A program made the position numbers and the translations under genes. 45,612 nt of DNA from Candidatus Aenigmatarchaeota archaeon (lineage in GTDB: Archaea > Aenigmatarchaeota > Aenigmatarchaeia > CG10238-14 > SCSR01). Of this stretch, positions 1,118 through 39,669 are shown one piece after another; the first letter of the stretch is position 1, and every line of letters starts with the position of its first letter. The notes below the pieces were generated by a model. It saw only the letters and a program-made list of their open reading frames with translations. It did not search any database and was not told the DNA's origin. The stretch spans positions 1 to 45,612 of the forward strand of contig JAWADS010000003.1 of assembly GCA_038998625.1 (NCBI GenBank), written 5' to 3'.

Positions 1118-1164
1118 TTTATATAGATTACGGACCACCAATGGTGGTTCTAAATCTATATAAA
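1118..1164. promoter_or_regulatory. 47-bp palindrome copy A (divergent TATA boxes around ACCAC-N5-GTGGT)
   Basis: TTTATATAGATTACGGACCAC CAATG GTGGTTCTAAATCTATATAAA lies between divergent genes. The right TATATAAA ends 22 nt before ATG 1187. Confidence 0.8.
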
Positions 1165-1186
1165 CCCCCTTTTTCAAAACTTTTTT

Positions 1187-1606
1187 ATGTTAAATTTAGT
1201 TCCAACCCTTTATGATACGAAGATTTTTCCTGATCCTCGAGTTTCTGAAATTATTGAAGAATCAAAGAAAAAAGTTGCAGAATATTTCAAAATACCAAAG
1301 TATTTGCTTGATGGTGTTAAATTTAAGATATCCAAATTACCAGAATTTTATCAAATCGGAATGAAATTTGTTGATGGTTATTTGGTAAAATATATAAAGA
1401 AGGTGGGGAAAGTTCTAGGTTTATTTTTTCCTTATAAAAATGAAATCTACTTAGATTATGAAAATTTATACGATGAAAAACTTTTGAAAAGAACTATAAT
1501 TCATGAACTTGTTCACAAGGCGCAAGAAGTTTTTGGAAGGATTTATAGCTTGCCAAGATATTTAATTGAAAAAGAAGCATATGAAGTTACAAATAAATTG
1601 GCTTAA
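1187..1606 (+). CDS. Small HEXXH zinc-metallopeptidase-like protein
   Basis: TIIHELVHKAQ motif with a downstream EKEA helix (gluzincin-like third ligand) and upstream GLF...EIYLD strands. Confidence 0.7.
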   Translation: MLNLVPTLYDTKIFPDPRVSEIIEESKKKVAEYFKIPKYLLDGVKFKISKLPEFYQIGMKFVDGYLVKYIKKVGKVLGLFFPYKNEIYLDYENLYDEKLLKRTIIHELVHKAQEVFGRIYSLPRYLIEKEAYEVTNKLA

Positions 1607-2073
1607 TGTTTTATTTTATCACAAAAAATTTTGACTTGCATTTCAGGCATTTTCAACTTATGTTCTTGAACTTTATTTTCATCGTAAATATGAATAACTT
1701 TATAACCAAGCGCAGTTAATGCTTCTGCAATATATCTGCGATGGCAACGAAAGAACAAAAGCTCTGCACAAGTAATTACAACATTTTTATAATCAATTAT
1801 TTCCATCAATTTTTTTATAGCATCTGCAAACTCAGAAGTTTTTGTAAATGCTTCATATCCTTCTTTTCTAAATCCTCCAAGTTCTGGATAATGTAAATAA
1901 TCAATCTTATTTCTCCTTAATTCTATTTCTAAATTCTCCTTGTTAAACCACGGAAATTTTTTACTAGAAGGAAATTTTCTTACATCAATCAATAAATCTA
2001 TTTTGAAATGTTTCAAAATTTTAAGGAATTCTCCAAAGCTTCTAGTGGAGTGACCAATCGTAAAAATTTTCAT
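1603..2073 (-). CDS. DUF488 family protein
   Basis: MKIFTIGHSTR, LIDVRKFPSS, ELGGFR and CAE...RCHRR motifs. Start moved to the ATG at 2073. Confidence 0.9.
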   Translation of the reverse strand: MKIFTIGHSTRSFGEFLKILKHFKIDLLIDVRKFPSSKKFPWFNKENLEIELRRNKIDYLHYPELGGFRKEGYEAFTKTSEFADAIKKLMEIIDYKNVVITCAELLFFRCHRRYIAEALTALGYKVIHIYDENKVQEHKLKMPEMQVKIFCDKIKH

Positions 2074-2077
2074 AAAT

Positions 2078-3235
2078 TTATTTCTTTCCTTCCTCACTAA
2101 TTTCTTTATCTTTCAAAACTTTAGCTAAGTCATGAATCAATTTTCTTACATATTCTCTCATTTCATAAACTTCCTTATCAGAAATCTCATGGATTTTTTT
2201 CTCATCTGACTTTTTCTTTAATTCTTCTACCCTCTTCCATACATCCCAATAATAAGGTTCAATTATCTTTTTATCAATAAATTCTTGTTTAAAGGTTACT
2301 GGAATTTCTTCTTGCTTAGGATTTTTATTTAAACTCTTCAAAGCTGTTAATGCTGCTTTATACATAACTTCATGCGTCCTCTCCAAAATTTTCTCCCTTT
2401 TTCTTATTTCTAAAGCATTTAGCAGGGCGAACATTTTATCCACAAATTTTTCAGCCCTATCTAACCATTCATCCACAAATTGTCCTGATGCATCCATCAA
2501 TTCTTTATGTTCAATTTTTTTCCTAATTTCAATTATTTCCCTTAGCCATTCAGCATATTGTGGTTCCAAAATTCCTGGTTCCACTAAAAATTTTTTCACT
2601 TCTTCATAAGCTTTACTTGGAACTGGTGGTGATAAACCCATGAACATTAAAACAGCTTGGGCAGAATTCAGAATAGCATAATAAACATCTTCTGCTAACA
2701 TTAACAATTTTACAGTTTTTGCCCTCATAATTTTCTTTGGTGCCCCTTCCATGTAATTTTCTATAGCTTCCCTTGTGGTTGGAATTCTACCCATTTCTAA
2801 AAGTTTTTTAATTGGAGCAAAGAATCCAGTATCATAAAGGGGCAAACCTTCTTTAATGAAATTGTATATTATAGGATGAGCTACTCTTGCGTAATCCCAA
2901 AATTCAGTTAGAGTATAGCTAGGCTGTACAGAAATTTTTTCAGAAATCTCCTTTGCTATCTTTTCCATTTCTTCATCTAGTTTGTCCAAAAATTCTGGTG
3001 TGACTTCGTTAAACTGAGTGTCATCAACAATAACAAAAATATCTATGTCACTAGTTGGTTTAAATTCTTCTCTTACTACAGAGCCCATCATTACTATGGC
3101 TTTTATATATTTTCCATATTTTTCTAAAATTTTCTTGGAGAATTCTTCAGCTTTTTTTAAAATTTCTTCTTTTGTTTCTTGCCTCTTCTCATTTTTTGTT
3201 TTTTCAGTCTTTTCTTCTTTGTTCATATAAACCAA
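2078..3235 (-). CDS. Nucleotidyltransferase-HEPN fusion protein (385 aa)
   Basis: Pol-beta type GS...DIDIFVIVDD motif, followed by a helical HEPN-like domain with an intact Rx4H (RKKIEH) and an extra C-terminal helical domain. Confidence 0.85.
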   Translation of the reverse strand: MVYMNKEEKTEKTKNEKRQETKEEILKKAEEFSKKILEKYGKYIKAIVMMGSVVREEFKPTSDIDIFVIVDDTQFNEVTPEFLDKLDEEMEKIAKEISEKISVQPSYTLTEFWDYARVAHPIIYNFIKEGLPLYDTGFFAPIKKLLEMGRIPTTREAIENYMEGAPKKIMRAKTVKLLMLAEDVYYAILNSAQAVLMFMGLSPPVPSKAYEEVKKFLVEPGILEPQYAEWLREIIEIRKKIEHKELMDASGQFVDEWLDRAEKFVDKMFALLNALEIRKREKILERTHEVMYKAALTALKSLNKNPKQEEIPVTFKQEFIDKKIIEPYYWDVWKRVEELKKKSDEKKIHEISDKEVYEMREYVRKLIHDLAKVLKDKEISEEGKK

Positions 3236-3279
3236 TAATAACTTTGCCTATTTAAACATAAGCATATCAACACAAATTA

Positions 3280-4134
3280 TTACTCCTCTATTTCACTCAG
3301 TTCTTCTCCCAAAACTTCTTTAGGAATTAATTTTTTAAACCTCTCTACAATTTTTTCTGTTAGTTGAAGGGTTTTCTCTAAATACTCCCCTCTAACATCT
3401 TTTACTATTTTATGATCAATATCTTTCCATAGCTTATCCAACTCTTTAAATTTCTCTATATATTCCTCTTCCAGCTTATTTTCTTTCACTAATCTTTCCA
3501 AAAATTTGGGTATATCTTTTGGATCAGGTTGAGCTTTGTAGTGAAACATAACGGCAGATTGAATCATATCTATCGCAGTATAGCGCAAATCAAAAACAAT
3601 TGCTTTTAAATCTAACTTTATTTTTTTGAGTCGGGCTTCACTAGCCTTTGCTTTTAAAGAAATGGTTTCTTCGCTGGGCGGAATTAAACCCATTTGAAGC
3701 ATTCTTTGAATAGGCTTAATGAAACCTGTATCGTAAATTGCTAAACCATATCTCAAAAAGTTAACTAATTCAGGCGAACCATGCCTTATCCATTCCCAGA
3801 ATTTTGTGAGGGCATGAACTTGGATATGTAAATCTTTTAGTTCATGGGCCATTAAATAAAGATGGGAAATAATTTTTTCAAAATCCTCTGTTGATTTAGT
3901 AGCAGTATCATCAAGGATAACAAAAGCATCCACATCACTCCCCTTTGTCATAGTTCCTTTAACAGCAGAGCCAAAAATCACAACCGATTTTACAATATCT
4001 CCATATTGTTTTCTAGCATCATTGGTAAACTTTACTACTTTGGCTATAACATCACTAGGCACTTTTATTTCTTCTTTTTCTTTTTTAGCTAATTTCACAT
4101 CCTCCAACTCTTTTTCTAAATTCTCAATATCCAT
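3280..4134 (-). CDS. Nucleotidyltransferase-HEPN-like protein, paralogue of neighbour
   Basis: FGSAVKG...SDVDAFVILDD motif. Shares LTxFW and YDTGFxxPI with the upstream-coordinate paralogue. WKDIDH stands in place of Rx4H. Confidence 0.85.
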   Translation of the reverse strand: MDIENLEKELEDVKLAKKEKEEIKVPSDVIAKVVKFTNDARKQYGDIVKSVVIFGSAVKGTMTKGSDVDAFVILDDTATKSTEDFEKIISHLYLMAHELKDLHIQVHALTKFWEWIRHGSPELVNFLRYGLAIYDTGFIKPIQRMLQMGLIPPSEETISLKAKASEARLKKIKLDLKAIVFDLRYTAIDMIQSAVMFHYKAQPDPKDIPKFLERLVKENKLEEEYIEKFKELDKLWKDIDHKIVKDVRGEYLEKTLQLTEKIVERFKKLIPKEVLGEELSEIEE

Positions 4135-4179
4135 ATTACACCTTTACACAATAAACCGATTTAAATTTAAAGTCTGTTG

Positions 4180-6198
4180 TTATCTAAATCTTTCCTTTCT
4201 CCATTCTTCAACTTTTCCTTTTTCTACAACAGCCCTACCCAAAAATCCATGTTCTTCTTCGGGCACTATAATTAAACCTTTTAACGGATCTAAGGCATGC
4301 TCTCTAATAACAACAATCTGCCTTTCCATGGATGCCACCTGACCAATATCTATACCAAAAAACTTTTTAAATTCTTCTGGTTTGTTTAGAATATCTTCAG
4401 GTTTTATATTTTTTTCCAAGAATTCAACGATTATTTTCAAGGCTGTTATACTTTGTCTTACTTCTTGAGGTGACCCCCTTTCGAAAATTATGTAGACTTC
4501 TTTTCCTTTACCCATACCTTTTTGTTGTAATTTAAAGTAAATTTTATATAAATACCACATTGCTTCAGTTCCTAAAGGAATATGAATGTGGGCAGGCATG
4601 AGAACAGAAGGATAACCGGAATGAATTATCCTTACAAATTTACCAGCATCTTCTGGCATTAAATCTACAACTATATCAGGATCTATATTGGAAGAAAGCA
4701 AATGCTCAAGATCAATAGCGATACCCATGATTTTTCCTTCAGGATCAATTTCCTTTATCAAATAGTACATTTGTAAAGGATTAGGCAGCCTTGACCATTC
4801 TGCTATTAAAGGTGAGCTCATGGGCGTCTCCAAAGCGAAAAATATTTTCCCTTTTGCATCTTCCAAAACTTTTTTTAAATCATATCTTTTATGAATAGTG
4901 TCATCAGGACACTTAGACTGCATAAAGTGCCCCCAAATATATTTTGCTGAAACAGCGGGGACCCAAAGCCTAAAATCTAGTTGGAACTGTTCATCATCTA
5001 TGGAAAATCTTTCTATTCTATGTTCTTTTTTCCAATCTTCAACAGTATAATCTTTTTTATTCTTTCTTTTTTTCTCGAACTCAACAAGATATTTTACATT
5101 AATATCAACAATATTTTTCCAAAGGGGGTCATTTGTTAATTCCATATATTTAGCGATTATGTAGTAAGCTATTCTTTCGGAGCCATAGGCTAAGTTTACA
5201 CTTTCAATTGCTTCTTTAAATCTAGTTATCCATCTTTCTTCCACAATCTGCTTTAAAGTTAGATATTCTTTCTTTTCTTTTTCATCTAATTCTGCTGGAT
5301 TCAATTCTTTTCTTTTAACAGCCTCAGCTTTTTCTAACTTTTCTTTTAATCTCTTATAAATTTCCCTTCTTTCCCTTCTTTCCTTTAAAGATATTTCTGT
5401 TGTTAATATACTTTGTTGAAAATATCCCATTTCCCTTTCTAATTTAAGTTTTTCTTCTTCAGGTAATTGTATTTTTTTTTCAATTATTTGCATTAATTTT
5501 TCTTTTCTTTCTTCCAACTCTATTTTCAATCTATTTAATTCATCTTCCATATGGGGAATTTCTATTTCAAGGGACCTAATAGTTTCATTAACATTATCCT
5601 TTATCGCTTCGAATAAAGAAGGTAGATGTAAGATTTCCATTATATTTTTTTGTCTAACGGCCCATTGGAGTAAAGGGATATCATTTCCTAATTCATCCTT
5701 TGCAAAAATTTTTTTGATTTTTGTTTCTTCCAAAAAATAAGTTAAAGGTCTACCCCAAAAATCCACAAGCTGCAAAGGCTCCAATTGTCTCGAGGCTAAG
5801 AGGAAAGAATAAGATTCTGAAGAATGAACGAGCATGTATTTAGCCCCCAATTTTATACAGTTTTCCAAAATGTAATAATGTCTTTCATGGGAAAACCTAT
5901 ACTTATCAGCAATGCTTTCATCTAAATATGGCAGTTCAATTTCCCCAAAAGCTTTGGCTTCACTATGTATACCAAAATTTATTCCAAGCTTTTCTATAGC
6001 TTCCTTTACTTTTTTTTCTAAATGTGGTTCGTTGAATTCAGCTATTGATTCTAAATCTACCTGTGCAAACCTTACACCTTGCATCAAAGGAAAGCCAGAA
6101 ATTTTTCTAGCAATTCCAATATATTGTAGTCCGCCTTCTCCTTCTTGTCCTCTAGCTATGCCCCAAAGACCTGAAGAAATGCCTACAATATAGGGCAT
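4180..6198 (-). CDS. Endonuclease IV / xylose-isomerase-like TIM-barrel metalloprotein with large coiled-coil insertion
   Basis: Ordered metal-ligand motifs GIHSE, LVHSS, ALETP, IDLEH, IIHSG, AHIHIPLG and IFERG, with a long E/K/R-rich helical insert between LVHSS and ALETP. Confidence 0.7.
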   Translation of the reverse strand: MPYIVGISSGLWGIARGQEGEGGLQYIGIARKISGFPLMQGVRFAQVDLESIAEFNEPHLEKKVKEAIEKLGINFGIHSEAKAFGEIELPYLDESIADKYRFSHERHYYILENCIKLGAKYMLVHSSESYSFLLASRQLEPLQLVDFWGRPLTYFLEETKIKKIFAKDELGNDIPLLQWAVRQKNIMEILHLPSLFEAIKDNVNETIRSLEIEIPHMEDELNRLKIELEERKEKLMQIIEKKIQLPEEEKLKLEREMGYFQQSILTTEISLKERRERREIYKRLKEKLEKAEAVKRKELNPAELDEKEKKEYLTLKQIVEERWITRFKEAIESVNLAYGSERIAYYIIAKYMELTNDPLWKNIVDINVKYLVEFEKKRKNKKDYTVEDWKKEHRIERFSIDDEQFQLDFRLWVPAVSAKYIWGHFMQSKCPDDTIHKRYDLKKVLEDAKGKIFFALETPMSSPLIAEWSRLPNPLQMYYLIKEIDPEGKIMGIAIDLEHLLSSNIDPDIVVDLMPEDAGKFVRIIHSGYPSVLMPAHIHIPLGTEAMWYLYKIYFKLQQKGMGKGKEVYIIFERGSPQEVRQSITALKIIVEFLEKNIKPEDILNKPEEFKKFFGIDIGQVASMERQIVVIREHALDPLKGLIIVPEEEHGFLGRAVVEKGKVEEWRKERFR

Positions 6199-7928
6199 TA
6201 GGCTCTAACCCCCGGAACATTGAAAGCAGATTTAAAGTAATCTACTATTGTTGCAAACATTCTACCTGAAGGTATCTGATAATATTTAGCTAGCCTATGA
6301 TGCATAGCAAACTCATAAGGCCCCCATGCTCTGAAGAATGAAATTTCCAACCCAAGGGAAGAGAAAAACTTTCCAATTTTTTCTCTCAACTTTCTAAACG
6401 TTTCGCTAGGTGGTGCTACTTCTCTTATCTTTTCAGGCTCTCCATAAATTTCTGGATATTCCTCTTTAAAAATTTCTTCTATATCGCGCGGAATTTTTAT
6501 TCCGAACTCACCCATCAATTGTTTTATATAAATTTCCATTTCTTTTTCTCTTGCTTTTAATTCCAAAATCCTTCCAATTATTATATTTTGGGAGTTTGTT
6601 GCTGTCTTTAATGAGGGTGCTAACATTAAATCTTCTATTTCAGAGCCATCTGGTAGTCGAATTACCGCTCGCATTATAGGAAGATCAACAAAAATGAAAT
6701 AGGGACTAAAAACCCATGCTTCCCCTCCAGTACTTTGCAGTCCCCTCAAACCTTTTTCAAATTCATCCACTAACTCTTCCCTTGCTTTTAGCATGTCATA
6801 AGCAGTAAGTCGAACATTATACTTTTTTTCAATTTTTTCTTTTATTTTTCTTACAATATAATCAATGGAAGGTTCAATGGGTAAAGCCTTTACCGTTCCT
6901 TTCCACCTTTCCCCCTTTTCTTCACGATACTTTTTCCTTATTTCCTCTATCTCACTTTGGGTAAAACCAGCTTTGGTCGCAGGTATTTCATCTAGTGGCA
7001 CTTCTCTTGTGATTTTATATTTTTCTGATGGTGCAAATGGTTTCCATGCCCAAACATGCATGAAATCAACGGATAATGCTTGAGTATCAGGCCTCAAAAT
7101 ACTTCTCAAAAAATCACTTCTTGCTGCCGGTGAACTTAATGCGTCGGTTATCATTTTATATCTCGCTATTGTTGGCTTTAGCATTTCTTTATATTCTTCC
7201 ACAGATTTTCTTCTTGCCTCTAAAAGCCTCCTCAAATTCTCATATCTTTCCTTTACTGTAGGAAGAAACAAATTATCCCTCCATTCTAAAAAAAGCTTAT
7301 TTTTCATTGCTAGAATGACGCCCTCTGCTTCTGAAACATTTAAACGAGAAGCAATTTTTTTAGGATCTAAATCATCATCCTTTAATTGCATAAAATCTAC
7401 TATTATTGTGGGCCACCTCACCACTATGCTACGTAAAGCGATAGGAGTATTGGGTAAGTCAGTATACGCATCAACTTGATCAATAAAAATAGAGCGTAGA
7501 GTTTGATTGGCCTGCAATATCAATTTTTCATCTTTAAGCCTCTTTCCTTTTTCCAATAATTGATAATAATCCATGAATTCTTTATATTTTCTTAAATCAT
7601 GCTGCAAAAGTTCGAGATCAGATATTGCTGTAGCTATGCTGGCTAATCCTGCTTTAATTTGAGCTTGCAATTGTTCACGTTGAGATATGGTTAAGTCATA
7701 ATAAGCTTTGAAGACAGGTGAAACAAATACCCATTCATCAACTTTGAATCTAACAAACCCCCATTTAGGTAGCTGAAAAACTATGCCATAATAAACGCCT
7801 GTTGCTTTCCCGGGCGGAGCAGTAAAGTCTAGATACTCCTCTGCATTTAGCGGCACAGCATTTACTCCTTCACCAGGTTTCAAATCTTTTCCAGCCGGCT
7901 CAGGACCTAAAGGATATTCAATCGGCAT
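6198..7928 (-). CDS. Hypothetical protein with coiled-coil segments (576 aa)
   Basis: Long ORF whose stop overlaps the next start by 1 nt (TAATG). Heptad-like stretches such as QREQLQAQIKAGLASIATAISDLELLQHDL. Confidence 0.85.
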   Translation of the reverse strand: MPIEYPLGPEPAGKDLKPGEGVNAVPLNAEEYLDFTAPPGKATGVYYGIVFQLPKWGFVRFKVDEWVFVSPVFKAYYDLTISQREQLQAQIKAGLASIATAISDLELLQHDLRKYKEFMDYYQLLEKGKRLKDEKLILQANQTLRSIFIDQVDAYTDLPNTPIALRSIVVRWPTIIVDFMQLKDDDLDPKKIASRLNVSEAEGVILAMKNKLFLEWRDNLFLPTVKERYENLRRLLEARRKSVEEYKEMLKPTIARYKMITDALSSPAARSDFLRSILRPDTQALSVDFMHVWAWKPFAPSEKYKITREVPLDEIPATKAGFTQSEIEEIRKKYREEKGERWKGTVKALPIEPSIDYIVRKIKEKIEKKYNVRLTAYDMLKAREELVDEFEKGLRGLQSTGGEAWVFSPYFIFVDLPIMRAVIRLPDGSEIEDLMLAPSLKTATNSQNIIIGRILELKAREKEMEIYIKQLMGEFGIKIPRDIEEIFKEEYPEIYGEPEKIREVAPPSETFRKLREKIGKFFSSLGLEISFFRAWGPYEFAMHHRLAKYYQIPSGRMFATIVDYFKSAFNVPGVRA

Positions 7929-7967
7929 ATAAAATAAATTTTTGTTTTTTTGGTATTAAGTTTAGTT

Positions 7968-8129
7968 TTATGTTAGAAATAGATAAACCCCAATACCCAT
8001 CAAAATTAGGCCTACAAAAACTCCAGCATTGCCCATGCTTTCCGATTGATAACCTAAAATCCACGGTAGTTTTGTAAATATTAAAAATCCTAATAAGAAA
8101 ATTCCCAAACCTAAAAGTTTTGTTGCCAT
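7968..8129 (-). CDS. Small two-TM membrane protein (53 aa), absent from ORF track
   Basis: Manual translation: MATKLLGLGIFLLGFLIFTKLPWILGYQSESMGNAGVFVGLILMGIGVYLFLT. Starts 3 nt after the stop of its neighbour. Confidence 0.75.
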   Translation of the reverse strand: MATKLLGLGIFLLGFLIFTKLPWILGYQSESMGNAGVFVGLILMGIGVYLFLT

Positions 8130-8132
8130 AAT

Positions 8133-8279
8133 TTATTTTAGAAACTGAAGGCCTATATACATTAACAAAGGGCCAAAAATTATTTCTATCAAAAAATTTT
8201 GATAATTTTTTTGATAAAATGCAAAAAATGAAAGCATTAAACCTAGTACAAATAAGAAGCCTCCTAAAATTTTTATCAT
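8133..8279 (-). CDS. Small two-TM membrane protein (48 aa), absent from ORF track
   Basis: Manual translation: MIKILGGFLFVLGLMLSFFAFYQKNYQNFLIEIIFGPLLMYIGLQFLK. Similar pattern to 7968-8129. Confidence 0.7.
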   Translation of the reverse strand: MIKILGGFLFVLGLMLSFFAFYQKNYQNFLIEIIFGPLLMYIGLQFLK

Positions 8280-8349
8280 AAAATTTAATTCAAAACCAAA
8301 AATTTAATATCTTTTTAGCTTATTGAAACAAATAATTTTTAAGAGGAAC

Positions 8350-8904
8350 ATGCCAGTCTTTGCTAGAACTAAATTAGTCATACATGATGATTGTTTATCC
8401 CCAGCACCAGGTTCGCCCCTACCAGGAGCAGCCACCATATCACTGAAATATACTGGCCCGAATCCTCAAAATCTTTATGAGCAAATAAAAAAGTTTATTG
8501 TTGCAGTTTTCGCCATTCCAGAGAAAGATATTTTAGAGAGAGAATTCTTCTGGGACAGAAGTAAGCCAGACGAAGTCTTTAGAGTAACTTTTGAATTTGT
8601 TAAGGATTTAGATGCCTTTTCCTTCATGGAAATTATTATTAGCTTAAGCGGCGTGGCAAAGCCAAGCAGACATTTTGGAAAAGAAGGTAGTGCAGAAATA
8701 AGGATTGAAGGTAGGCTTAGAACAGAATATCCTCAAGATACATTGTGGCAAAGAAGTTTATTATATGAAATGTTTAGAGTATTTTATCATAAAATTATTT
8801 ACGAAGAAAAGAGAAAGAAGTATAAAGAGGAGTGTTGGAATTTGATAAATAAATTACAAAATGAAATAAAATCTTTTCTTAATATTTTACCAAAAACAAG
8901 TTGA
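8350..8904 (+). CDS. Hypothetical protein, paralogue 1 (DDCLxP...GPNP family)
   Basis: ATG 8350 follows a GAGGA SD-like motif. Clear similarity to the next ORF. Confidence 0.85.
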   Translation: MPVFARTKLVIHDDCLSPAPGSPLPGAATISLKYTGPNPQNLYEQIKKFIVAVFAIPEKDILEREFFWDRSKPDEVFRVTFEFVKDLDAFSFMEIIISLSGVAKPSRHFGKEGSAEIRIEGRLRTEYPQDTLWQRSLLYEMFRVFYHKIIYEEKRKKYKEECWNLINKLQNEIKSFLNILPKTS

Positions 8905-9419
8905 GTGAACTTATGCCAGTATGGAGATTGGAAGATGATTGCCTAGCGCCTACTGCTACATTGAGAATAGATTTTGAAGGACCAAATCCTTTTTTAATTT
9001 ATCAGAGGGCAGGAGAAATATTGAGAAGAATTTTTCAAGTAGAAACTGCAGATTATTGGGAAAGGGATTTTCGTTGGGACATTTCTTCAGATCCAAGAGA
9101 TTTTTTTGTTAGAATTTTTATTAACAAAGGAGTTGATGTGAGAACAAAAATACTTGCTGAAGTGGTTATGCAAGGAAAACAGCCCAGTGATCCTAGCAAG
9201 AATGGTAAGGTTACAATATTTATAAGTGCAAGATTAATCACAGAATATAGAATGGATACAATTTTTCAAAAATCCCCTATTTACAAATTTTTCCTTTGGT
9301 TATACCATAAAACCCTTTACAATGAAGTAAGGAGAGGTTATTTAAGTTTTTGTCAAAATCTTTTAACTAAAGTATATAATGAATTCAGATCTGTTTTGGA
9401 AATGTCAGTAAAAGTTTAA
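8901..9419 (+). CDS. Hypothetical protein, paralogue 2 (DDCLxP...GPNP family)
   Basis: 4-nt overlap with the previous gene. Shared DDCL, GPNP, ERxFxWD, RLxTEY and YHKxxY motifs. Confidence 0.8.
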   Translation: MSELMPVWRLEDDCLAPTATLRIDFEGPNPFLIYQRAGEILRRIFQVETADYWERDFRWDISSDPRDFFVRIFINKGVDVRTKILAEVVMQGKQPSDPSKNGKVTIFISARLITEYRMDTIFQKSPIYKFFLWLYHKTLYNEVRRGYLSFCQNLLTKVYNEFRSVLEMSVKV

Positions 9420-9443
9420 TATTAAACAAACTAAATTGTGTTT

Positions 9444-9764
9444 ATGGCCTTCAAAGATTTTCTAAAAAAATTTTTTGGAATAAAGTCAAAAAAATCAGAA
9501 AGCTTGTCATCTTTAGAAATTCCAACAAAAACACCTTCACCATTACCTTCCCCCATCTTAACACCTTCATCTCCTCCTTCACCATTACCTTCCCCCACTC
9601 CTTTGGCAATTAAAGAAAGTACAGGAATAGAAGGATTAAACGCTAAAATGGATTTAGTTTCAACACAATTAGATAATTTAAAAATTCAATACGATACTTT
9701 AAATCAAAAAATTGATTCCATAGAAAAAATGGTATCAGAGCTTTATAAAATGGCTAAGGGTTAA
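9444..9764 (+). CDS. Small protein: amphipathic N-helix, Pro/Ser linker, C-terminal coiled coil
   Basis: MAFKDFLKKFFG, then PSPLPSP repeats, then LNAKMDLVSTQLDNLKIQYDTLNQKIDSIEKMV heptads. Confidence 0.8.
   Translation: MAFKDFLKKFFGIKSKKSESLSSLEIPTKTPSPLPSPILTPSSPPSPLPSPTPLAIKESTGIEGLNAKMDLVSTQLDNLKIQYDTLNQKIDSIEKMVSELYKMAKG
9534..9597 (+). repeat. 22-bp intragenic direct repeat (2 copies)
   Basis: CCTTCACCATTACCTTCCCCCA at 9534-9555 and 9576-9597, encoding PSPLPSP. Confidence 0.9.
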
Positions 9765-10267
9765 GACTCCTCTTCTCTACAACGCTCGCAAATCCATTGC
9801 CCATTAACAAGCTTTATATGAGTTGACTCTTGCTCACATGCTTCACATATGTTTATATCTACCTTTTCCCTTTCCGAAACAATTTCTATCATTTCATGAT
9901 TTCTTGGTTTATTAAAAGGGAAATACCCTAAATTTAAAAAATCCAAGTTTAACATTCTACTAAACATTTTGGCTAATCTAAAATCTTTTTCAAATAGCCA
10001 CCAGAAAACTTCCTTTGCGTAACAATAAACACATAAAACAGTTGGATTTGATTGTTTGCATTTAACACAAAATGTATTGCCTTCTTCTGTTGTAAACATC
10101 TTCACCAATTTTTGATGGAGTTCATTAAATTCTGGAATTAAATCAGGCTCTGCTGAAAGAAGCCAAGCTGTAACACTTTCCTTAAGGCAATTTACACATA
10201 AAAAATTAGAAATTCTTTCTAAACACATTTTACAAATTATCAATTCTTGTTTCAACTTCTTCCCCAA
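9761..10267 (-). CDS. Cys-rich putative zinc-finger protein
   Basis: Six CxxC pairs (CKMC, CVNC, CVKC, CVYC, CEAC, CERC). Start is TTG and uncertain. Confidence 0.75.
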   Translation of the reverse strand: MGKKLKQELIICKMCLERISNFLCVNCLKESVTAWLLSAEPDLIPEFNELHQKLVKMFTTEEGNTFCVKCKQSNPTVLCVYCYAKEVFWWLFEKDFRLAKMFSRMLNLDFLNLGYFPFNKPRNHEMIEIVSEREKVDINICEACEQESTHIKLVNGQWICERCREEES

Positions 10268-24816: not shown

Positions 24817-24984
24817 TCATTTTTCTTCTGCATAGACAATAGCATCTCTATTAATTATTCTTTTCTTCCCTCTACTTTCTAAAACAATCCATTGGTTGGC
24901 ATCTTTTAAAGTTCCTTCTAAAGAAATAGAAGTATCACCAAGCATTACAATTAGCTTTACTTTTTTTCCAATTAACTCCTTCAT
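24817..24984 (-). CDS. 55-aa Sm/LSm-like microprotein, absent from ORF track
   Basis: Manual translation: MKELIGKKVKLIVMLGDTSISLEGTLKDANQWIVLESRGKKRIINRDAIVYAEEK. ATGA overlap with the lhr stop; ends 1 nt before the MPE ATG. Confidence 0.75.
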   Translation of the reverse strand: MKELIGKKVKLIVMLGDTSISLEGTLKDANQWIVLESRGKKRIINRDAIVYAEEK

Positions 24985-27900
24985 TCTCCTACCCTTTCCA
25001 AAACTTTTTTATGCAACTCTAATAATATTTTTTTCCTATCTTCCATTAAAACTACATCAGATTCCCCTAAAGCTATTAAAGAATGGGAAAAAGGACTAGG
25101 CAAATCACACTCTTCCAAAAATTCAAGTTTAATTTTTCCTTCTTCAATTTCTTTCAAAATTTCTTTAGCATGCTCTATATCCATATAATCTTGTAAGATT
25201 TCACGATATGTTTCTTTTAATACAGGAAAACCTTCAATTTTTTCACAAACTTTTATTAGTCTATCAGCATTCATTTGTTGTTTGGTAACTCTTATTTCAT
25301 ATCCTTTATAATTCCTTAAAACCATTAAAGCTCTTGTTGCGGAGTGCCTAAATTTTCTTCTTAAAAGCTCTGTTTGCCTCAAGGCTTTTTTCAAAATTTC
25401 TTCTAAATTTTCTGAATTAACTAGCTTAACAACTTCCTTTGGATCAATTCTTTTTGGCTTCAATTCCTTTATCTTTTTAATAAAAAGCCATTTGTTTTCT
25501 AAGGCTTCATTGGGTAAAGAAAGCATAAAGCCATTATCGCTAATAGTTACAGCTATAGACTTTCCAATTTTTTTAATTAAAGCATAAGCAAAGGCCCTAG
25601 ATAGAGCATCATTTACACGCCTTCCATATAAAGTGTGGAAAATTAAGTTTTGATTTCCTCTTTCATCAATATAATTTTCCACTAAAATTCTCTCATGGGA
25701 AGGAAAGCCTTTTGCCCCCATTTCTTCTAAAAATCTTTTCTGATAGTAGAAATAATCCACTATAGCTTTAGCAGCCCATTCAGTAACAGGATACTCCTTT
25801 AACAACCAATTCACAATTTCTTTTTTAGATTTTTTGTTTATCAATTCAAACATTTTTTCTCTAAATTTCCCAATTTCTATGGCCAATTCAAAACTTAATG
25901 GTAATTGTTCCGAAAACCAGCTGGGCACCGTAGGTCTTTTTTCTTTTACTGGTAAAACAAATGCTTGGGCTTGCTTAGCTTTAACAAATTGATAGGTTTT
26001 TCCTGCTAAAACAAAAATATCTCCCGGCACAAGCCTCTGTAGAAATTCTTCCTCTATACTTCCAATATATTTTCCATCCAAACTTTTTACTTTAATTTTT
26101 ACTTCGTCAGGAATTGTGCCAATGTTTAATGAATAAATAACCCTAGCATATTTTCCTCTCCTTCCAAAAACCATATCATTAAAGTCCACCCAAATTTTCC
26201 CGTAAACTTTTTTATCTTCTAAAGTGTGATAAGCTCCAGAAAGATATTCAAGAACAGAAACAAAATCCTTCCACTCTAAATTGCGATAACAATAAGATCT
26301 TCTAATTAAATTAAAAGCTTCTTTTATGTTCCACTTCTTTTCCAAACTCATTCCCATTATATGTTGAGCTAAAACATCTAAGCAATTTTGAGGAATTTGT
26401 ATTTTATCTAAAAAATATTCATAAGCCTTCTTAGCCATAACTGTTGTTTCTACAAGATCATCATGGTCTAGACATATTACCCTGCCTATAGAGGTTTCAT
26501 GTAACTTATGCCCAGCCCTGCCAATCCTTTGCATTAGACGCGAAATACTTTTTGGGCTCCCTAGTTGCACTACTAAATCAATATAACCAATGTCTATGCC
26601 AAGTTCAAGACTTGTGCTGGAGTTTTGAGTTATAATTCCGTTGACAATATAATTATGAAATTTATAAACATCGACAAGATCATAAATTTCGTGCAATTTT
26701 ATTTTTTCAATTTTCTTTATCTTTTCCCAAAAAACATGCCCTTTTATTAATTTTTTTAAATATTCCGTTTCTTCAGTTTTTCCAAATTTTTCAAAAAAAT
26801 TCAAAACCCTAAATAAAGTTTTTCTGTTGAAATAGTGCTGATCCTTTTCATAGCTCTCTAAATCAATTCCAACTTCTTTCTTAAAATTCCAGCTTTTTAT
26901 TTTTAATTTTTTTCTTATATTCAATAAAATTTTACCTATTTGAGGAATTCTATCTATTGATATACTTTTAGTTTTAATTATTCCTTTCAACTCCTGACAA
27001 TTATCTCTAAAAAATCTTATTTCCTTAACAAATTTAGTGATATATTCTCCACTAATAATAGAAACTTTTCCTCTTCGAATGGAAGACACGATACCAATTT
27101 TTAGAAGAAGTCTATTCAAGCCATATGCTAATGATTTGCTGGTAGCATTAAAGTCTATTGACGATAAATTCCCATTTTTTATTACTAAATTGCCATTACC
27201 ATCAAAATAACCAGCTAAAAATTCAACTATGTAATTTTTAGGTAGGGAGAAAATAAATTTAGGTATAAAAGTTTTTCTTGTTTCTTCACCTTCTGGGGTG
27301 CAAAGATTTTTTATTAAAGATGCAAAAAGGGATGAATACCGAAATCCTATAATTTCCCCAGATTTTTTCATAAACTCTTTATCTATCCCAAATTCTTTTT
27401 TAATTATTGAACTATATTTTTTTATCAAATACAGATTTTTATTTAAAACGATCACTTTACTATGGTATATATTGCCTCTAGCAAGAAAGAAGCCTAAAAA
27501 TCGTAAAAATGATGGACTCAATATAGGAGACGATAATTTTAATTTTTTCTTATTTGTACCTATATTACTCAATTTTAACAAATAATTTTCATTTCCTAAA
27601 TCTCTACAAATTTTTTTGAAAACAAAAATCTTCAACCAACAGCGATTATTAAAAAAATTATATAGCAAATTCCTATTAAGATTTAAACACCTTGCAGCAT
27701 TAGTTATGGTGCCATATTTTTTTAATAATTTTTTCTTTAAATCTGTTAAAATTTCTCTAGTTGGCTTGACAAAACAATTTTCATTCGTCAAGTATTCTAT
27801 ATAATAAGGAATTTTAAAATTATGGTTATTTGGTATACATCGTATGGTTGCTATAAACTCGCCCTTTTTGAGATCTTGGGCCTTTTTCCATTTTAATATT

Positions 27901-29174
27901 CCATCACTAATTGTCAAAAGTTTATGTTCTTCGCTACACTTTATTTCCTTTCCGAGATCAGTTTTAATATATAACCCATTTAGAATTGAATTCCTTTTAT
28001 TTATTGAACTAAAATAAGTCTTCTGTAAATTCAGGTGTTGAGGGTTCAAAGAAAAAATTTCTGCATCATTATTTAATTTTGATATTTTTTCCCATTTGCC
28101 ATCACTAAGTAAAATTTCTGAATCTTTATCCACACACACTATTGTTTTTAATAGTCCTTTCTTCAGTCTCTCTTCCAAATCTAGTCTTATTTCCCTCGCA
28201 ACACTGCTGTGATGCGCTCCTATTTGATCTTCAGTATAGGTTTCAGGAAAAGTTTGTTTTAAATGATGCACAACCCTCTCAGTTCCACTTCTTGTATTAG
28301 TGAAGACTAAAGTTGTTCTGTGTTGGTTTATTAATTTGTGCAAAAGATTATACATTTCACTTGTAATTTTTTCTGCCGGTGTGTAAACAATATCTTTTAC
28401 CGGAGATAAAACTTTTATATCCATATGTTTCACAAATCTTGCGTCAACTATAGTGCAATCTCTTTCTTTTCCATTCTCATAACCAACCAAGAATTTTGCA
28501 ACAGCCTCAAGAGGTGAGAGTGTAGCTCCTAGTCCTATTCTTACTAAGCTCTTGCCAACAAAATCTTGCAACCTTTCTAGGCTTAAGCTTAAATGTGCAC
28601 CACGCTTAGAATTTGCAAGCTCATGAATTTCATCGACAACAACCCATTTAACATTCTTAAATTTTTCCCTAAATTTTCTTGTACTCAAAACTACAGCAAT
28701 AGTTTCGGGTGTAGTTACTAAAATGTGTGGAGGTTTTTTCAATTGCTTTTGTTTTTCGTTTGGTGGCGTATCTCCAGTTCTAACAGCAATTCTAACTTCT
28801 GGTAGCACAATTTTCATTTCTTTCGCGATTTCCCTTATTTCCTTAAGCGGGACTAATAAGTTTCTGTAGATGTCATTATCTAATGCTTTAAGTGGAGAAA
28901 TGTAAACACAATAAACCATATCTTCAAGCTTTCCTTTTTCTGCTAAGGTAAACAAATAATCAAGGATAGATAGAAAAGAGGCCAAAGTCTTTCCAGAACC
29001 AGTGGGAGCAGTTATCAAAGTATTTTTTCCTTTGTGAATTAATTCTACAGCAAATTTTTGATGTAAAAGTAATTCTTTAAAATTTCTTTTAAACCATTCC
29101 CTAACATAAGGCCTAAGTAAAGCTAAAACTTTTTCATCTTTTTTTGGTTTTTTTATGTTAACATAGCGAATCAT
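24981..29174 (-). CDS. lhr: Lhr-type SF2 ATP-dependent helicase containing an intein
   Basis: APTGSGKT, ISPLKAL, TTPE, VDEIHE, HHSS, STSLELGIDIG and QRIGRAGH motifs. Confidence 0.96.
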   Translation of the reverse strand: MIRYVNIKKPKKDEKVLALLRPYVREWFKRNFKELLLHQKFAVELIHKGKNTLITAPTGSGKTLASFLSILDYLFTLAEKGKLEDMVYCVYISPLKALDNDIYRNLLVPLKEIREIAKEMKIVLPEVRIAVRTGDTPPNEKQKQLKKPPHILVTTPETIAVVLSTRKFREKFKNVKWVVVDEIHELANSKRGAHLSLSLERLQDFVGKSLVRIGLGATLSPLEAVAKFLVGYENGKERDCTIVDARFVKHMDIKVLSPVKDIVYTPAEKITSEMYNLLHKLINQHRTTLVFTNTRSGTERVVHHLKQTFPETYTEDQIGAHHSSVAREIRLDLEERLKKGLLKTIVCVDKDSEILLSDGKWEKISKLNNDAEIFSLNPQHLNLQKTYFSSINKRNSILNGLYIKTDLGKEIKCSEEHKLLTISDGILKWKKAQDLKKGEFIATIRCIPNNHNFKIPYYIEYLTNENCFVKPTREILTDLKKKLLKKYGTITNAARCLNLNRNLLYNFFNNRCWLKIFVFKKICRDLGNENYLLKLSNIGTNKKKLKLSSPILSPSFLRFLGFFLARGNIYHSKVIVLNKNLYLIKKYSSIIKKEFGIDKEFMKKSGEIIGFRYSSLFASLIKNLCTPEGEETRKTFIPKFIFSLPKNYIVEFLAGYFDGNGNLVIKNGNLSSIDFNATSKSLAYGLNRLLLKIGIVSSIRRGKVSIISGEYITKFVKEIRFFRDNCQELKGIIKTKSISIDRIPQIGKILLNIRKKLKIKSWNFKKEVGIDLESYEKDQHYFNRKTLFRVLNFFEKFGKTEETEYLKKLIKGHVFWEKIKKIEKIKLHEIYDLVDVYKFHNYIVNGIITQNSSTSLELGIDIGYIDLVVQLGSPKSISRLMQRIGRAGHKLHETSIGRVICLDHDDLVETTVMAKKAYEYFLDKIQIPQNCLDVLAQHIMGMSLEKKWNIKEAFNLIRRSYCYRNLEWKDFVSVLEYLSGAYHTLEDKKVYGKIWVDFNDMVFGRRGKYARVIYSLNIGTIPDEVKIKVKSLDGKYIGSIEEEFLQRLVPGDIFVLAGKTYQFVKAKQAQAFVLPVKEKRPTVPSWFSEQLPLSFELAIEIGKFREKMFELINKKSKKEIVNWLLKEYPVTEWAAKAIVDYFYYQKRFLEEMGAKGFPSHERILVENYIDERGNQNLIFHTLYGRRVNDALSRAFAYALIKKIGKSIAVTISDNGFMLSLPNEALENKWLFIKKIKELKPKRIDPKEVVKLVNSENLEEILKKALRQTELLRRKFRHSATRALMVLRNYKGYEIRVTKQQMNADRLIKVCEKIEGFPVLKETYREILQDYMDIEHAKEILKEIEEGKIKLEFLEECDLPSPFSHSLIALGESDVVLMEDRKKILLELHKKVLERVGE
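26622..28136 (-). mobile_element. Intein (505 aa) with LAGLIDADG-type endonuclease domain
   Basis: KTIV|CVDKDSEILL...SEEHKL...IYDL...HNYIVNGIITQN|SSTSLELG. Removal restores helicase motif V. Confidence 0.93.
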
Positions 29175-32578: not shown

Positions 32579-32738
32579 GAGTTAAGATTTGATTCCAAGG
32601 TTAAAGTTAACATTAACTACTTATACCTTCTTCTAACTCTTAAACAAATCTAACATCCCCTTACACCTAGCAACTTCAATCAACCATTGCTTACTAATAC
32701 TTAAACAGTAGGTATGAGAGCTAGAAGTATTTAAACTG

Positions 32739-32843
32739 CGCCAGGGCTGGGATTTGAACCCAGACGTGCTCGAAAGCACACCAGCTTGCCATCTTATATT
32801 AAGACTCAAGGCTGGCCCGATTACCTGATTCCGGCACCCTGGC
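32739..32843 (-). tRNA. tRNA-Ser(TGA) with 18-nt intron (about 32787-32804)
   Basis: GCCAGGG/CCCTGGC acceptor stem, G73, CCAGC-CTTGAG[intron]A-GCTGG anticodon arm, long variable arm and GGTTCAAATCC T-loop. Confidence 0.92.
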
Positions 32844-32929: not shown

Positions 32930-33229
32930 TTATTCTTCTGGCTCATGCAAAACTTGAATTTTCCCTGTTCTTGGTACATTGAGCTGTAACTTATCTTTAA
33001 AACTTGTGGCAAAGGCCCCAGAAATTTTTACTGTATCTCCTATATCTACTTTATCTATATCTTTTTCCCATAAAGAAAGAGAAATTTGCCCTGTCGCATC
33101 TTCTAATAAAACATCCACAACACTTCTTCTTCCATATTTTGTGTTAACTTCTCTCACTTCAGACTTATCAATAACTTTAGCTTTTATTGTTATGTTACTC
33201 ATTCCAATTTTTATTTCTGATATGTTCAT
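32930..33229 (-). CDS. ssb: Single OB-fold ssDNA-binding protein (SSB/RPA-like)
   Basis: ISEIKIGM...KVIDKSEVREV...LEDATGQISLSLW...GDTVKI...LQLNVPRTGKI. Confidence 0.88.
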   Translation of the reverse strand: MNISEIKIGMSNITIKAKVIDKSEVREVNTKYGRRSVVDVLLEDATGQISLSLWEKDIDKVDIGDTVKISGAFATSFKDKLQLNVPRTGKIQVLHEPEE

Positions 33230-33271
33230 TTTAACTTACTTAATGCTTTTTGGATTTTATTTATTTAAATT

Positions 33272-33356
33272 TTTTTATTGGCTCGCTCCACTGAGCGGTC
33301 CACCTCGCGCAAGATATTAAACAAAGAATATAGGCGCGAGGTCCTTCTTTGTAAAA
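33272..33356 (-). ncRNA. 85-bp GC-rich structured element, copy 1 (candidate ncRNA/cis element)
   Basis: 82/85 identical to the reverse complement of 39713-39797. Interleaved 8-bp and 9-bp stems plus a small hairpin. Strand is inferred. Confidence 0.55.
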
Positions 33357-33393
33357 AATTGTAAAGCAAAAAAAATCAGCAAAAATTTCCCCC

Positions 33394-33440
33394 TTTATAT
33401 AGATTTAGAACCACCACGAGTGGTTCTAAATCTTTAAATA
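33394..33440. promoter_or_regulatory. 47-bp palindrome copy B
   Basis: TTTATATAGATTTAGAACCAC CACGA GTGGTTCTAAATCTTTAAATA. Confidence 0.8.
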
Positions 33441-33502
33441 TTAGTTCAAAAAAGTTTTAAATTTAAAATTTAACTTAATTCCCTCTACAATATATGAAAA
33501 AT

Positions 33503-33985
33503 TTATCTTATTACATCTGAAGTGGCTGCTCCGATAGAAGCAAAAAGAGAAACCAAAACAACTAGCTTAACTGCCCATATAACATCAGTTATTATATTGC
33601 CAATTATTCCTACTGTAAAAAGAACAGAAAAGCTGCAAACATAAGAAACTAAAATTACGGAAAAGACTCTTCTTTTAATTTGAAAGTTGAAGTATTTTTG
33701 ACGATAAATCAGGTAGCTCACTAAAAATGTCAGAAAGAACAATGCAAATGATCTGAAAATATCTAAAAGCTTAGCAATCTCCCAGACTTCCTGGGTAACT
33801 ATAAAGGGGGCTGACAAAATTAGGGCGCCAACAATTTGCTCCCCAATGTCGGAACGAGTAAAAGTTTTTGTAACAATCTTTTCTTTCAGCCTGTTGAAAT
33901 ATTCTTTTTCCCGTGATGTTAACTTTTTCAAATAGCTAATCCTACTTTCAGAAGGAATTTTCCACAGGCGTTTTTTCTTAAACAT
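33503..33985 (-). CDS. DUF2391-like integral membrane protein
   Basis: DIGEQIVGALILSAPFIVTQEVWEIA motif, four TM segments and an ASIGAATSD C-terminus. Confidence 0.78.
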   Translation of the reverse strand: MFKKKRLWKIPSESRISYLKKLTSREKEYFNRLKEKIVTKTFTRSDIGEQIVGALILSAPFIVTQEVWEIAKLLDIFRSFALFFLTFLVSYLIYRQKYFNFQIKRRVFSVILVSYVCSFSVLFTVGIIGNIITDVIWAVKLVVLVSLFASIGAATSDVIR

Positions 33986-34012
33986 TATAATAAAATTCTG
34001 TTTTTGCTTGTA

Positions 34013-34966: not shown

Positions 34967-35142
34967 ATAATTAGATTTAAAAATAATCTTTAGTAAAGTT
35001 TACTTTTGCTATGGCAATATTTTTTAATTTTTAACCAAAAAATAATTAACTTTAAATCTTTTTTCTTAAAATTGTGCTCTAATTTAAAAACTTTTCTGCG
35101 ATTAAAATAAAAAGTTTTCTATCAAATAAAAAATAGAGAAGA

Positions 35143-36117: not shown

Positions 36118-36134
36118 ATTTTATTAATTTTTTA

Positions 36135-36536: not shown

Positions 36537-36606
36537 TTTACAATTTTGTAATAAATTATAAATTAATTTTAATTATTTATTTTAAACTTTTTTGCCAAGA
36601 AAAAAT

Positions 36607-37083: not shown

Positions 37084-37084
37084 T

Positions 37085-38548: not shown

Positions 38549-38952
38549 ACTTTCACCGCCCTACCACCAGCTTGCTCTATTTTCTTTATGGCAGATTTAG
38601 AAAAATACTTTGCCTTAATTGTCAAAGCTTGAGTTAGCTTGCCTTTGCCTAAAACTTTTTCATATCCCAATTGAGATAAATCAATTTCTTTTAATTTTTC
38701 TTTTTCAGCCAACTTATCAATTTCCTCTAGATTTATTATAGCTGCTTTCTTAGAAACTTCTTTAGGCTTCTTAAAACCTTCTTTACCAAAATGTTCCGGC
38801 TCATATTTTACTGTATAGCTCCATTTATGTTTGTGCATTCCAGCCTTGCCCCTACCTCCTCTACTCCCACCACCACGCCATTTTTTGTGAGAACCATGGT
38901 AAGTTCTATGACCCCTTCTCCACTTTCTTTTACTATGTCTCTTAACCACCAT
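38545..38952 (-). CDS. rpl15: 50S ribosomal protein L15
   Basis: RGGGSRGGRGKAG, KVLGKG and AIKKIEQAGG motifs. Confidence 0.97.
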   Translation of the reverse strand: MVVKRHSKRKWRRGHRTYHGSHKKWRGGGSRGGRGKAGMHKHKWSYTVKYEPEHFGKEGFKKPKEVSKKAAIINLEEIDKLAEKEKLKEIDLSQLGYEKVLGKGKLTQALTIKAKYFSKSAIKKIEQAGGRAVKV

Positions 38953-38957
38953 TTAAA

Positions 38958-39425
38958 TCACATCATCCTCTCTATCAACTCATTTATTTCTTTCCCCCTA
39001 TAACCCAAATCTCCTTTCGGATAATATTCTTTTATTGATTTAAATCCTTTTGAAGGTGGAGTTAACCTAAAAAAAGGTTGTAATTCTTCAAAATCTTTTA
39101 ACTTTATTCTGCCTGCAAGAATTTCTTCAGCAAAATTTTCAAATTTGTCAAAATCTGTAACTTCTTTTAAAATTTTTTCATCTACTCTACTTCCATTTTT
39201 TAATCTTAATCTTTTTTTCAATAATTTCACTAAAGTTTCTTTATCAATTTCCCCCCATGTAACATAATCTTTTACTTTTTCTATCATGCCTTTTATACTA
39301 GGAGAATTTTCCCATAAAGAGCAATGGTTAGCAGAGTTCAACCTAAGCATTTTCAATGTATCATTAACTTCTTTTTTTATCCCCACGCCACCTCTAATCC
39401 TAATCACAGCTAGCATAAATATCAT
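38958..39425 (-). CDS. rpl30: 50S ribosomal protein L30
   Basis: AVIRIRG, KDYVTWGEI, FRLTPP and GDLGYRG motifs. The real start may be ATG 39416. Confidence 0.96.
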   Translation of the reverse strand: MIFMLAVIRIRGGVGIKKEVNDTLKMLRLNSANHCSLWENSPSIKGMIEKVKDYVTWGEIDKETLVKLLKKRLRLKNGSRVDEKILKEVTDFDKFENFAEEILAGRIKLKDFEELQPFFRLTPPSKGFKSIKEYYPKGDLGYRGKEINELIERMM

Positions 39426-39479
39426 TATTATTCATAAAAATTATAAAAAAATTTGATTTTTGATGTTAATTTTTCCTGT

Positions 39480-39526
39480 CTTTTCAAAATTTACTACCAC
39501 TTTTAGGAGTTCTAAATCTATATAAA
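39480..39526. promoter_or_regulatory. 47-bp palindrome copy C (degenerate left arm)
   Basis: ...ACTACCAC TTTTA GGAGTTCTAAATCTATATAAA. Confidence 0.7.
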
Positions 39527-39550
39527 TTTTTCTATTTTTTCCTAGTTTTA

Positions 39551-39597
39551 TTTATAAAGATTTTGTACCACTTTTAGGAGTTCCAACTCCTAAGAGT
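39551..39597. promoter_or_regulatory. 47-bp palindrome copy D (degenerate right arm)
   Basis: TTTATAAAGATTTTGTACCAC TTTTA GGAGTTC... Shares the 18-mer TACCACTTTTAGGAGTTC with copy C. Confidence 0.65.
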
Positions 39598-39622
39598 TGT
39601 ATTTCCAATGCTTTTTAAAGCC

Positions 39623-39669
39623 TTTATATAGATTGCGAACCACTAATGGTGGTTCTAAATCTATATAAA
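39623..39669. promoter_or_regulatory. 47-bp palindrome copy E
   Basis: TTTATATAGATTGCGAACCAC TAATG GTGGTTCTAAATCTATATAAA. Confidence 0.8.

Follow-up and report, generated by a model that had tools for sequence, protein, structure and literature searches.

The closest described counterparts of the element reported here include the TGM (Thermococcales glycolytic motif) site, TATCAC-N5-GTGATA, at which binding of the regulator TrmBL1 upstream of the B recognition element (BRE) and TATA box activates transcription and binding downstream represses it (PMC4706686, PMC4158304). [quoted passage not shown] We examined a 47-bp palindrome that occurs five times in one contig of Candidatus Aenigmatarchaeota archaeon (assembly GCA_038998625.1, here G000; contig JAWADS010000003.1, here C3). 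The whole contig, 45,612 nt (45.6 kb), was analyzed and is called the window. The palindrome is centered on ACCAC-N5-GTGGT and each of its arms ends in a TATA-like box that would face outward. Judged from sequence, there is about an even chance that it is a TrmB-type operator-promoter cassette that has been multiplied as dispersed repeat DNA in this species.

The G000 assembly comprises 469 kb in 19 contigs at 31.5% G+C and is rated 91.8% complete. The genes of the window include the archaeal markers TFB, L19e, L32e, GatD/E, Cbf5 and SecY, and the host is probably of DPANN type. For positions 1-10000 the eight sequencing runs listed contain hot-spring metagenome DNA, with no RNA run among them. 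Genes in G000 and its relatives were called crudely, as ATG-started open reading frames (ORFs) of at least 50-60 aa chosen greedily, and gene distances depend on these calls. As the relatives, with genomes of 0.4-1.2 Mb, are kin, counts across them overstate independence.

The first-pass annotation of the window had described five intergenic copies of the palindrome that all keep the 5-nt spacer, and this description held on each point. GAACCAC-N5-GTGGTTC, with two or fewer mismatches, gave 3 matches in the window compared to 0.01 expected from 100 shuffles, none of which reached 3. A repeat finder grouped 1118-1164, taken as reference, with 39623-39669 (94%), 33394-33440 (81%) and 39480-39526 (68%), and found 39552-39589 to be 82% similar to 39481-39518. 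The copies, to which no strand is assigned, lie in three intergenic regions. The first (1118..1164, core 1134-1148) has ORF 620-949 and the TFB gene (3-602) on one side and ORF 1187 on the other; the second (33394..33440, core 33410-33424) lies between a single-stranded DNA-binding protein (SSB) gene (32930-33229) and ORF 33503-33985. The remaining three lie between the ribosomal protein genes rpL30 (38958-39425) and rpS5 (39818-40603) and are called sites A, B and C: site A (39480..39526) has the variant core ACCAC-TTTTA-GGAGT at 39496-39510 with the right arm and its TATA box intact, site B (39551..39597) has a variant core at 39567-39581, the left arm TTTATAAAGATT and a right half that forms a small hairpin of its own, and site C (39623..39669) is a full palindrome with its core at 39639-39653.

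Sites A and B had been called degenerate copies. They represent a fixed variant, not decay: ACCAC-TTTTA-GGAGTT occurs eight times in G000 and twice in the same-genus relative G001, and it was absent from the four other genera scanned. Across the genome, motif scanning added two full palindromes (C1:67852 and C5:19491) and counted seven exact ACCAC-N5-GTGGT cores, every one of them intergenic, compared to about 0.1 expected from base composition. Because the assembly fragments at these very repeats, such copy numbers are lower bounds.

One of the exact cores points to a regulator. At C4:8088-8102 a distance of 38 nt separates the end of the core from the ATG of a TrmB-family gene (C4:8141-8941), and 8 nt separate it from the TATA box of that gene. 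The encoded protein has 266 aa, matches PF01978 (TrmB) at 7e-23 and also PF11495, and aligns over its full length to TrmBL2 structures (5bpd, residues 5-262 to 5-263) and by its N-terminus only to TrmB; it has the TrmBL2 architecture, with no sugar-binding subdomain, and scores far below the NCBIfam equivalog cut-offs for TrmB, TrmBL1 and TrmBL2. Searching 60 genomes of the family recovered the gene in 59. To follow the site across these genomes, the 150 nt upstream of residue 1 were scanned at the 30 best orthologous loci for ACCAC-N4-8-GTGGT with one mismatch at most. The palindrome was present at 16 of the 30 loci and in 8 of 18 genera, at -53 to -57 in five genera and at -59, -63 and -84 in one genus each, compared to a background of 0.05 per 150 nt in which the hits themselves are included.

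Exact N5 sites were also found in whole genomes of relatives, two in G001, seven in G026, two in G004 and six in G019, and the reversed control pattern gave none in any of them. All 16 of the relatives' sites are intergenic, and for eight of them a correctly oriented ORF with an ATG start lies at a distance of 38-49 nt; an ATG lies at an offset of 38-42 nt for 8 of 32 arms. The genes at these sites encode the regulator itself, an RNase H-like protein, an SNase-type nuclease, an aspartyl-protease-like protein and uncharacterized proteins, with no sugar-metabolism gene among them. Two single sites in G019 look like the back-to-back design in a single copy: one, on its contig C17, has ATGs on either side at 40 nt, and the other, on its contig C8, has called ORFs at 39 and 49 nt.

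G000 encodes a second TrmB paralogue (C9:12881-13672), which has an inverted repeat of its own, ATCACTA-N9-TAGTGAT, within C9:13673-13720, a few bases before its start; this is probably a separate autoregulatory operator. Since the palindrome at the start of this paralogue is different, we tentatively assign ACCAC/GTGGT to the C4 protein. Taken as sequence patterns, these data suggest that the ACCAC-N5-GTGGT core behaves like a TrmB-family operator, for which the C4 protein is the candidate binder.

How far this operator is a TGM site can be stated feature by feature. The annotation had pointed out a shared geometry, and the CAC-N5-GTG heart and the length of the spacer are common to both; a TrmB-family winged helix-turn-helix (wHTH) protein is encoded, and the site lies directly upstream of BRE/TATA (PMC4706686, PMC4158304). 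However, the half-site here is (G/T)AACCAC or TTACCAC and not TATCAC, so that the likeness does not extend to the TGM consensus. The candidate regulator is also not of the TrmBL1 type, as it has the length of TrmBL2, lacks the sugar-binding subdomain and aligns to NCBIfam TrmBL1 at its N-terminus only, with 68 bits against a cut-off of 650. In further contrast to TGM, the genes beside the sites are not sugar-metabolism genes, the site has two outward TATA boxes fused to it and has been multiplied on repeat units, and the host has a genome of about 0.5 Mb in another lineage. What is shared with TrmB operators in general is a palindrome beside core promoter elements in a genome encoding a PF01978 regulator, here with two paralogues that each have their own palindrome.

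The candidate regulator is closer in build to TrmBL2 (TK0471), with which it shares a length of about 264-266 aa, an N-terminal TrmB wHTH domain followed by a truncated C-terminal part, and a full-length alignment. The tyrosine of the TrmB recognition helix is conserved, the IYAT of the C4 protein being aligned with VYDT of TrmB (Y50, PMC4158304). Unlike TrmBL2, it is accompanied by a specific palindrome conserved before its gene in 8 genera, and its similarity to that protein is weak, with 39 bits against an NCBIfam cut-off of 530.

The arms were compared with the promoters of the genome. Of 244 upstream regions, 16 have a TTTAAA that begins at -30 relative to the ATG, against 6 for the position with the next highest count, and positions -35 to -33 are rich in A. 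The -30 peak is the signature of leaderless transcripts, whose TATA box would lie about 26 nt before the start. In the first copy the right arm has AAA at 1152-1154, which is -35 to -33, and TATATAAA at 1157-1164, which starts exactly at -30 of the ATG at 1187; the proposal that this box is correctly spaced for a leaderless start thus agrees with the peak of the genome. Matching geometry was seen at the regulator gene itself (C4:8111, -30) and at C2:35860 (-31), before the gene for an OB-fold protein at C2:35891, where there is an arm and no core.

The gene behind the first copy is a lineage-specific ORF of 139 aa (1187..1606, + strand) with its ATG 38 nt past the core and 30 nt past the start of the TATA box, and it is the sole protein gene of the window placed as a direct target. 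Its product had no Pfam match at E<=0.001, the RTP family matching below threshold at E 0.0082. A large protein search returned one homologue at 65% identity; 60 relatives gave two weak matches, and the ESM Atlas gave weak viral leads.

Most copies do not stand alone. Sites A, B and C, a linker and an 85-nt element that we call el85 together form a composite repeat unit of about 330 nt (39460..39797, + strand; the left edge is approximate, 39448-39465), which occurs four times in G000. The copies at C1:67697-68003 and C5:19371-19694 are 91% identical to it, and the copy at C6:25234-25378, which is truncated by the contig end, is 99% identical; in all four units the cores of sites A, B and C are spaced by 71 and 72 bp. 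In the window the unit occupies a 392-nt spacer (39426-39817) that parts rpL30 (38958..39425, - strand) from rpS5 (39818..40603, - strand). The two genes overlap both in G004 and in G017, and sequence reading places them directly side by side in G026. As the junction is contiguous in these three related genera, the spacer is taken to be derived. In G001 rpL30 is preceded by an unrelated ATPase gene; with the insert in G000 and the ATPase gene in G001, both species of the genus therefore have the rpS5-rpL30 operon interrupted at one and the same point. Sequence comparison shows in this way that the units spread recently in this species.

Combining these observations, a TrmBL2-like dimer, most likely the C4 protein, would bind the two ACCAC/GTGGT half-sites, whose centers, at a distance of 10 bp, share one face of the helix. 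Outward of the core, each arm would present a BRE-like stretch rich in A and a TATA box 8 bp beyond the core, so that one dimer would sit just upstream of two divergent core promoters, the position from which TrmBL1/Tgr activates. Because BRE and TATA lie 8 bp out on each arm, the bound dimer would touch the upstream edge of both pre-initiation complexes. By analogy with TrmBL1, activation would be expected, or autoregulation at the gene of the regulator itself. The cassette would have been copied within the larger repeat units. The first copy appears placed to drive the leaderless gene at 1187, and the other copies may start non-coding transcripts into el85, restart rpL30-L15-secY after the insert, or serve as extra binding sites. 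We infer from these features which protein binds, that the arms fire outward and in which sense genes are regulated.

Several observations weigh against reading the palindrome as an operator-promoter cassette. The canonical ATG offset of 38-42 nt occurs for one of the ten arms of the five full copies; the remaining nine face el85, 3' ends of genes or other parts of the repeat. The left arm of the first copy faces a 10-codon ORF, a T-run and then, 178 nt away, a gene led by a Shine-Dalgarno sequence; the right arm at 33394, TTTAAATA, faces the 3' end of ORF 33503-33985; and site C has el85 to one side of it and, to the other, sites B and A followed by rpL30. The good left arm at 33394 faces el85 and then the SSB-like OB-fold gene (32930..33229, - strand), which lies downstream of both and has a TATA-like box of its own after el85; among 29 relatives none had the operator upstream of the SSB orthologue, and we rejected SSB as the ancestral target for this reason. 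A position weight matrix built from 194 upstream regions scored the arms at -2.96 to 2.13 in either orientation, with true promoters averaging 1.18 and the 95th percentile at random lying at 2.2, and is too weak to separate outward from inward TATA boxes. Fourteen of the 30 orthologous regulator loci have no such palindrome, other wHTH proteins encoded beside sites (C6:2221, C1:68309) are possible binders, and TrmBL2, where characterized, is described as a non-specific chromatin protein and reported to bind coding and intergenic DNA without a defined motif (PMC4158304). Finally, the palindrome copies and their flanks are near-identical (91-99% over 145-330 nt), so that their sequence can be explained without selection on function. 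The bidirectional promoter module proposed in the annotation is partly supported, for its operator, with a core conserved before a TrmB-family gene, and for the geometry of the first copy, but not for the other nine arms; that the copies define a regulon is not supported.

The near-identity of the units raises the alternative that the palindrome is a selfish or neutral dispersed repeat, comparable to repetitive extragenic palindromes (REPs) or MITEs, in which hairpin DNA derived from one promoter-operator was copied with its flanks, has no regulatory role and matches the operator for historical reasons. The annotation had named such a hairpin repeat as its alternative, and it was partly right, as the copies and their flanks are indeed repeat units; they are located at contig ends, as at C6:25234-25378, and break the assembly. 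The 392-nt insert in a junction that is otherwise overlapping or adjacent, the nine arms that lack a coding target at the canonical distance, and the el85 partner, which is species-specific and was found in none of 40 relatives, agree with such an origin. So does the folding of the DNA, since the three good copies form hairpins of 21 bp at -12.4 to -14.1 kcal/mol with z of -8 to -10 (39480 forms none, z 0.2, and 39551 folds only within its own right half). However, mismatches between the arms (GCG versus TAG, for example) are uncompensated, which counts against a hairpin maintained by selection. G001 also keeps the core, its distance from TATA and the variant ACCAC-TTTWR-GGAGTT, there outside any repeat context, and an operator that had been copied passively would still bind its regulator.

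The search for a means of copying bears on the same alternative. Target-site duplications were found at none of 6 repeat junctions or 13 el85 copies, and the composite unit has no terminal inverted repeats. G000 gave no match to the Y1 (RAYT/IS200) transposase family PF01797, an absence that is unproven in a genome 92% complete, and none, at the same completeness, to the XerA-type tyrosine recombinase family PF00589, which a control search found in 14 of 14 reference genomes. One TnpB-like remnant (PF07282, 63 aa, C2:15114) lies about 20 kb from any site. No transposase occurs among the genes neighboring the copies, and we rejected an origin as insertion sequence ends or from a RAYT because no such genes were found. 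Compared to REP/RAYT systems, with which they share dispersed extragenic palindromes capable of forming hairpins, these copies number five and not hundreds, have promoter-like arms and a conserved operator at the center, and come without a Y1 transposase. The Correia and MITE elements introduced above, which the repeats resemble in their behavior as DNA, differ likewise: here there are about five full copies with archaeal BRE/TATA-type arms, and neither terminal inverted repeats, target-site duplications nor a cognate transposase. On balance, we consider a purely selfish or neutral repeat unlikely.

The regular spacing within the unit suggests a further possibility, that the sites are architectural or serve titration. 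The triple arrays, phased by 71/72 bp or about seven helical turns, would then be high-affinity loading sites for a TrmBL2-type protein, acting in filament nucleation or as boundaries or decoys and not as promoters. This would fit the identical spacing in all four units, the TrmBL2 architecture of the candidate binder, which lacks the sugar-binding subdomain, and the description of TrmBL2 (TK0471) as a chromosomal protein and global repressor (PMC4158304, PMC3031468). On the other hand, identity of the candidate to TrmBL2 is low (E 4e-9, far under the NCBIfam cut-off), and single sites at a fixed promoter distance in relatives point to ordinary gene regulation. We regard this explanation as distinctly improbable.

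The partner of the palindromes, el85, is a GC-rich structured dispersed repeat with 20 copies in G000, all intergenic and 84-100% identical, two in the window and 18 on other contigs. The search of 40 relatives that did not find it included G001 of the same genus. The window copies lie at 33272..33356 (- strand), 38 nt from the left arm of the palindrome at 33394 and 96% complementary to the other copy, and at 39713..39797 (+ strand), where the 3' end is 20 nt from the rpS5 stop and reads TTTTTATTGG on the reverse strand. Beyond the same arm of four of the five full palindromes, el85 follows at 22-45 nt in the same orientation, and this raises the possibility that the proximal arm is a small-RNA promoter that transcribes el85, with the palindrome controlling a family of regulated non-coding RNAs. 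The start expected on C1 falls at the first bases of el85, and el85 keeps three helices, two of them potentially pseudoknotted, with three compensatory pairs that all come from two copies on C6. The four associations, however, are not independent because they come from one duplicated unit, 16 of the 20 el85 copies have no palindrome, the distance between arm and el85 varies by about 20 nt, and T-runs lie in between. Moreover, helix 3 pairs fully only on the opposite strand, since 15 of 20 copies have a C.A on the forward strand whose counterpart on the reverse is G.U (a sixteenth copy has A.A). It is on this reverse strand that a convergent gene stops 55 nt or less from the el85 3' end in 9 of 20 copies, at 0-20 nt in five and, measured from the aligned core, at 39-54 nt in four that have a 3' expansion. 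Weakened by these signs that the reverse strand of el85 is the functional one, and by the el85 copies without a palindrome, a role of the palindrome as promoter of a small RNA is very unlikely in our view, and el85 may instead be a terminator or a mobile element of the 3'-UTR type.

Inverted repeats arrayed between AT-rich flanks, some copies being bordered by a run of G or C, could in principle also be a replication-origin array of origin recognition boxes or iterons, or a dif/att recombination site. This we consider hardly credible: the sole Orc1/Cdc6 gene (C11:1291-2274) is on a contig with no match to the core or half-site, the copies occupy at least five loci in a genome of about 0.5 Mb, and G000 gave no tyrosine recombinase to act on a recombination site.

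The operator-promoter cassette can be drawn into a fuller picture, which we put forward tentatively as possible but doubtful. In this family, whose genomes are very small, a TrmBL2-type protein would have TTACCAC/GAACCAC-N5-GTGGT as its specific operator, and one species would have packed phased triple-operator arrays, outward promoters and a terminator-like element into a cassette of about 330 nt that spread and cut into a ribosomal-protein operon conserved elsewhere. If this is true, mobile regulatory DNA is rewiring transcription units in a 0.47-Mb genome with no recognizable transposase. If the arms do not fire, the palindromes are merely a small hairpin-repeat family of one species.

Almost nothing is known of gene regulation in archaea of about half a megabase, for which the present data offer a concrete candidate operator, its conservation across 8 genera and a named candidate regulator (G000:C4:8141-8941). 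They further suggest that sequence specificity is possible in a TrmBL2-like protein, and they describe regulatory DNA that was copied around a reduced genome and split the S5-L30 junction with no visible transposase. What appears to be new is the motif, the TrmBL2-like protein that is likely to bind it, the conservation of the motif in a family with genomes of 0.4-1.2 Mb and its multiplication on a unit that splits a ribosomal-protein operon. A literature search, which is weak evidence, found no publication that describes a TrmB operator, or repeats carrying promoters, in DPANN-type archaea. Exact-pattern scans with the palindrome arm and two el85 cores gave no match among viral, metagenome and genome contigs in public collections, from which the records of G000 itself were possibly excluded.

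Some sites of this type have further features. In both species of the genus, G000 (C6:2747-3100) and G001 (C22), an exact ACCAC-N5-GTGGT site comes directly after a gene for a coiled-coil and wHTH protein of 170 aa, and beyond the G000 site a stretch of about 370 nt without ORFs might contain an RNA gene. Four of the G026 sites carry a further conserved box, GTGC(T/C)AAATC(T/A)A, about 30 nt from the core, which resembles the half-site-plus-TATA arm of the G000 palindrome.

Among the el85 copies, three are preceded by tRNA genes and six have a GAGCGA-like tandem expansion near the 3' end. At C6:4885-5960 the two divergent copies that carry the compensatory changes form direct repeats flanking a nucleotidyltransferase/HepT-like gene pair (PF18765, PF01934), which looks like a toxin-antitoxin cassette bracketed by el85.

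Searching Rfam at the gathering threshold gave tRNA-Gly as the sole match, and a permissive scan of 39400-39850 gave chance-level matches only (best E 0.13). An intron-containing tRNA gene at 32738-32843 (- strand) was missed by Rfam and by ARAGORN with default settings; with introns allowed, ARAGORN called it tRNA-Ile(tat) with a 10-nt intron, an identity that is doubtful because the extra arm is long. Elsewhere in the window, at 24981-29174 (- strand), an Lhr-type helicase of 1397 aa is split by an intein with a LAGLIDADG endonuclease domain (PF14890, PF14528).

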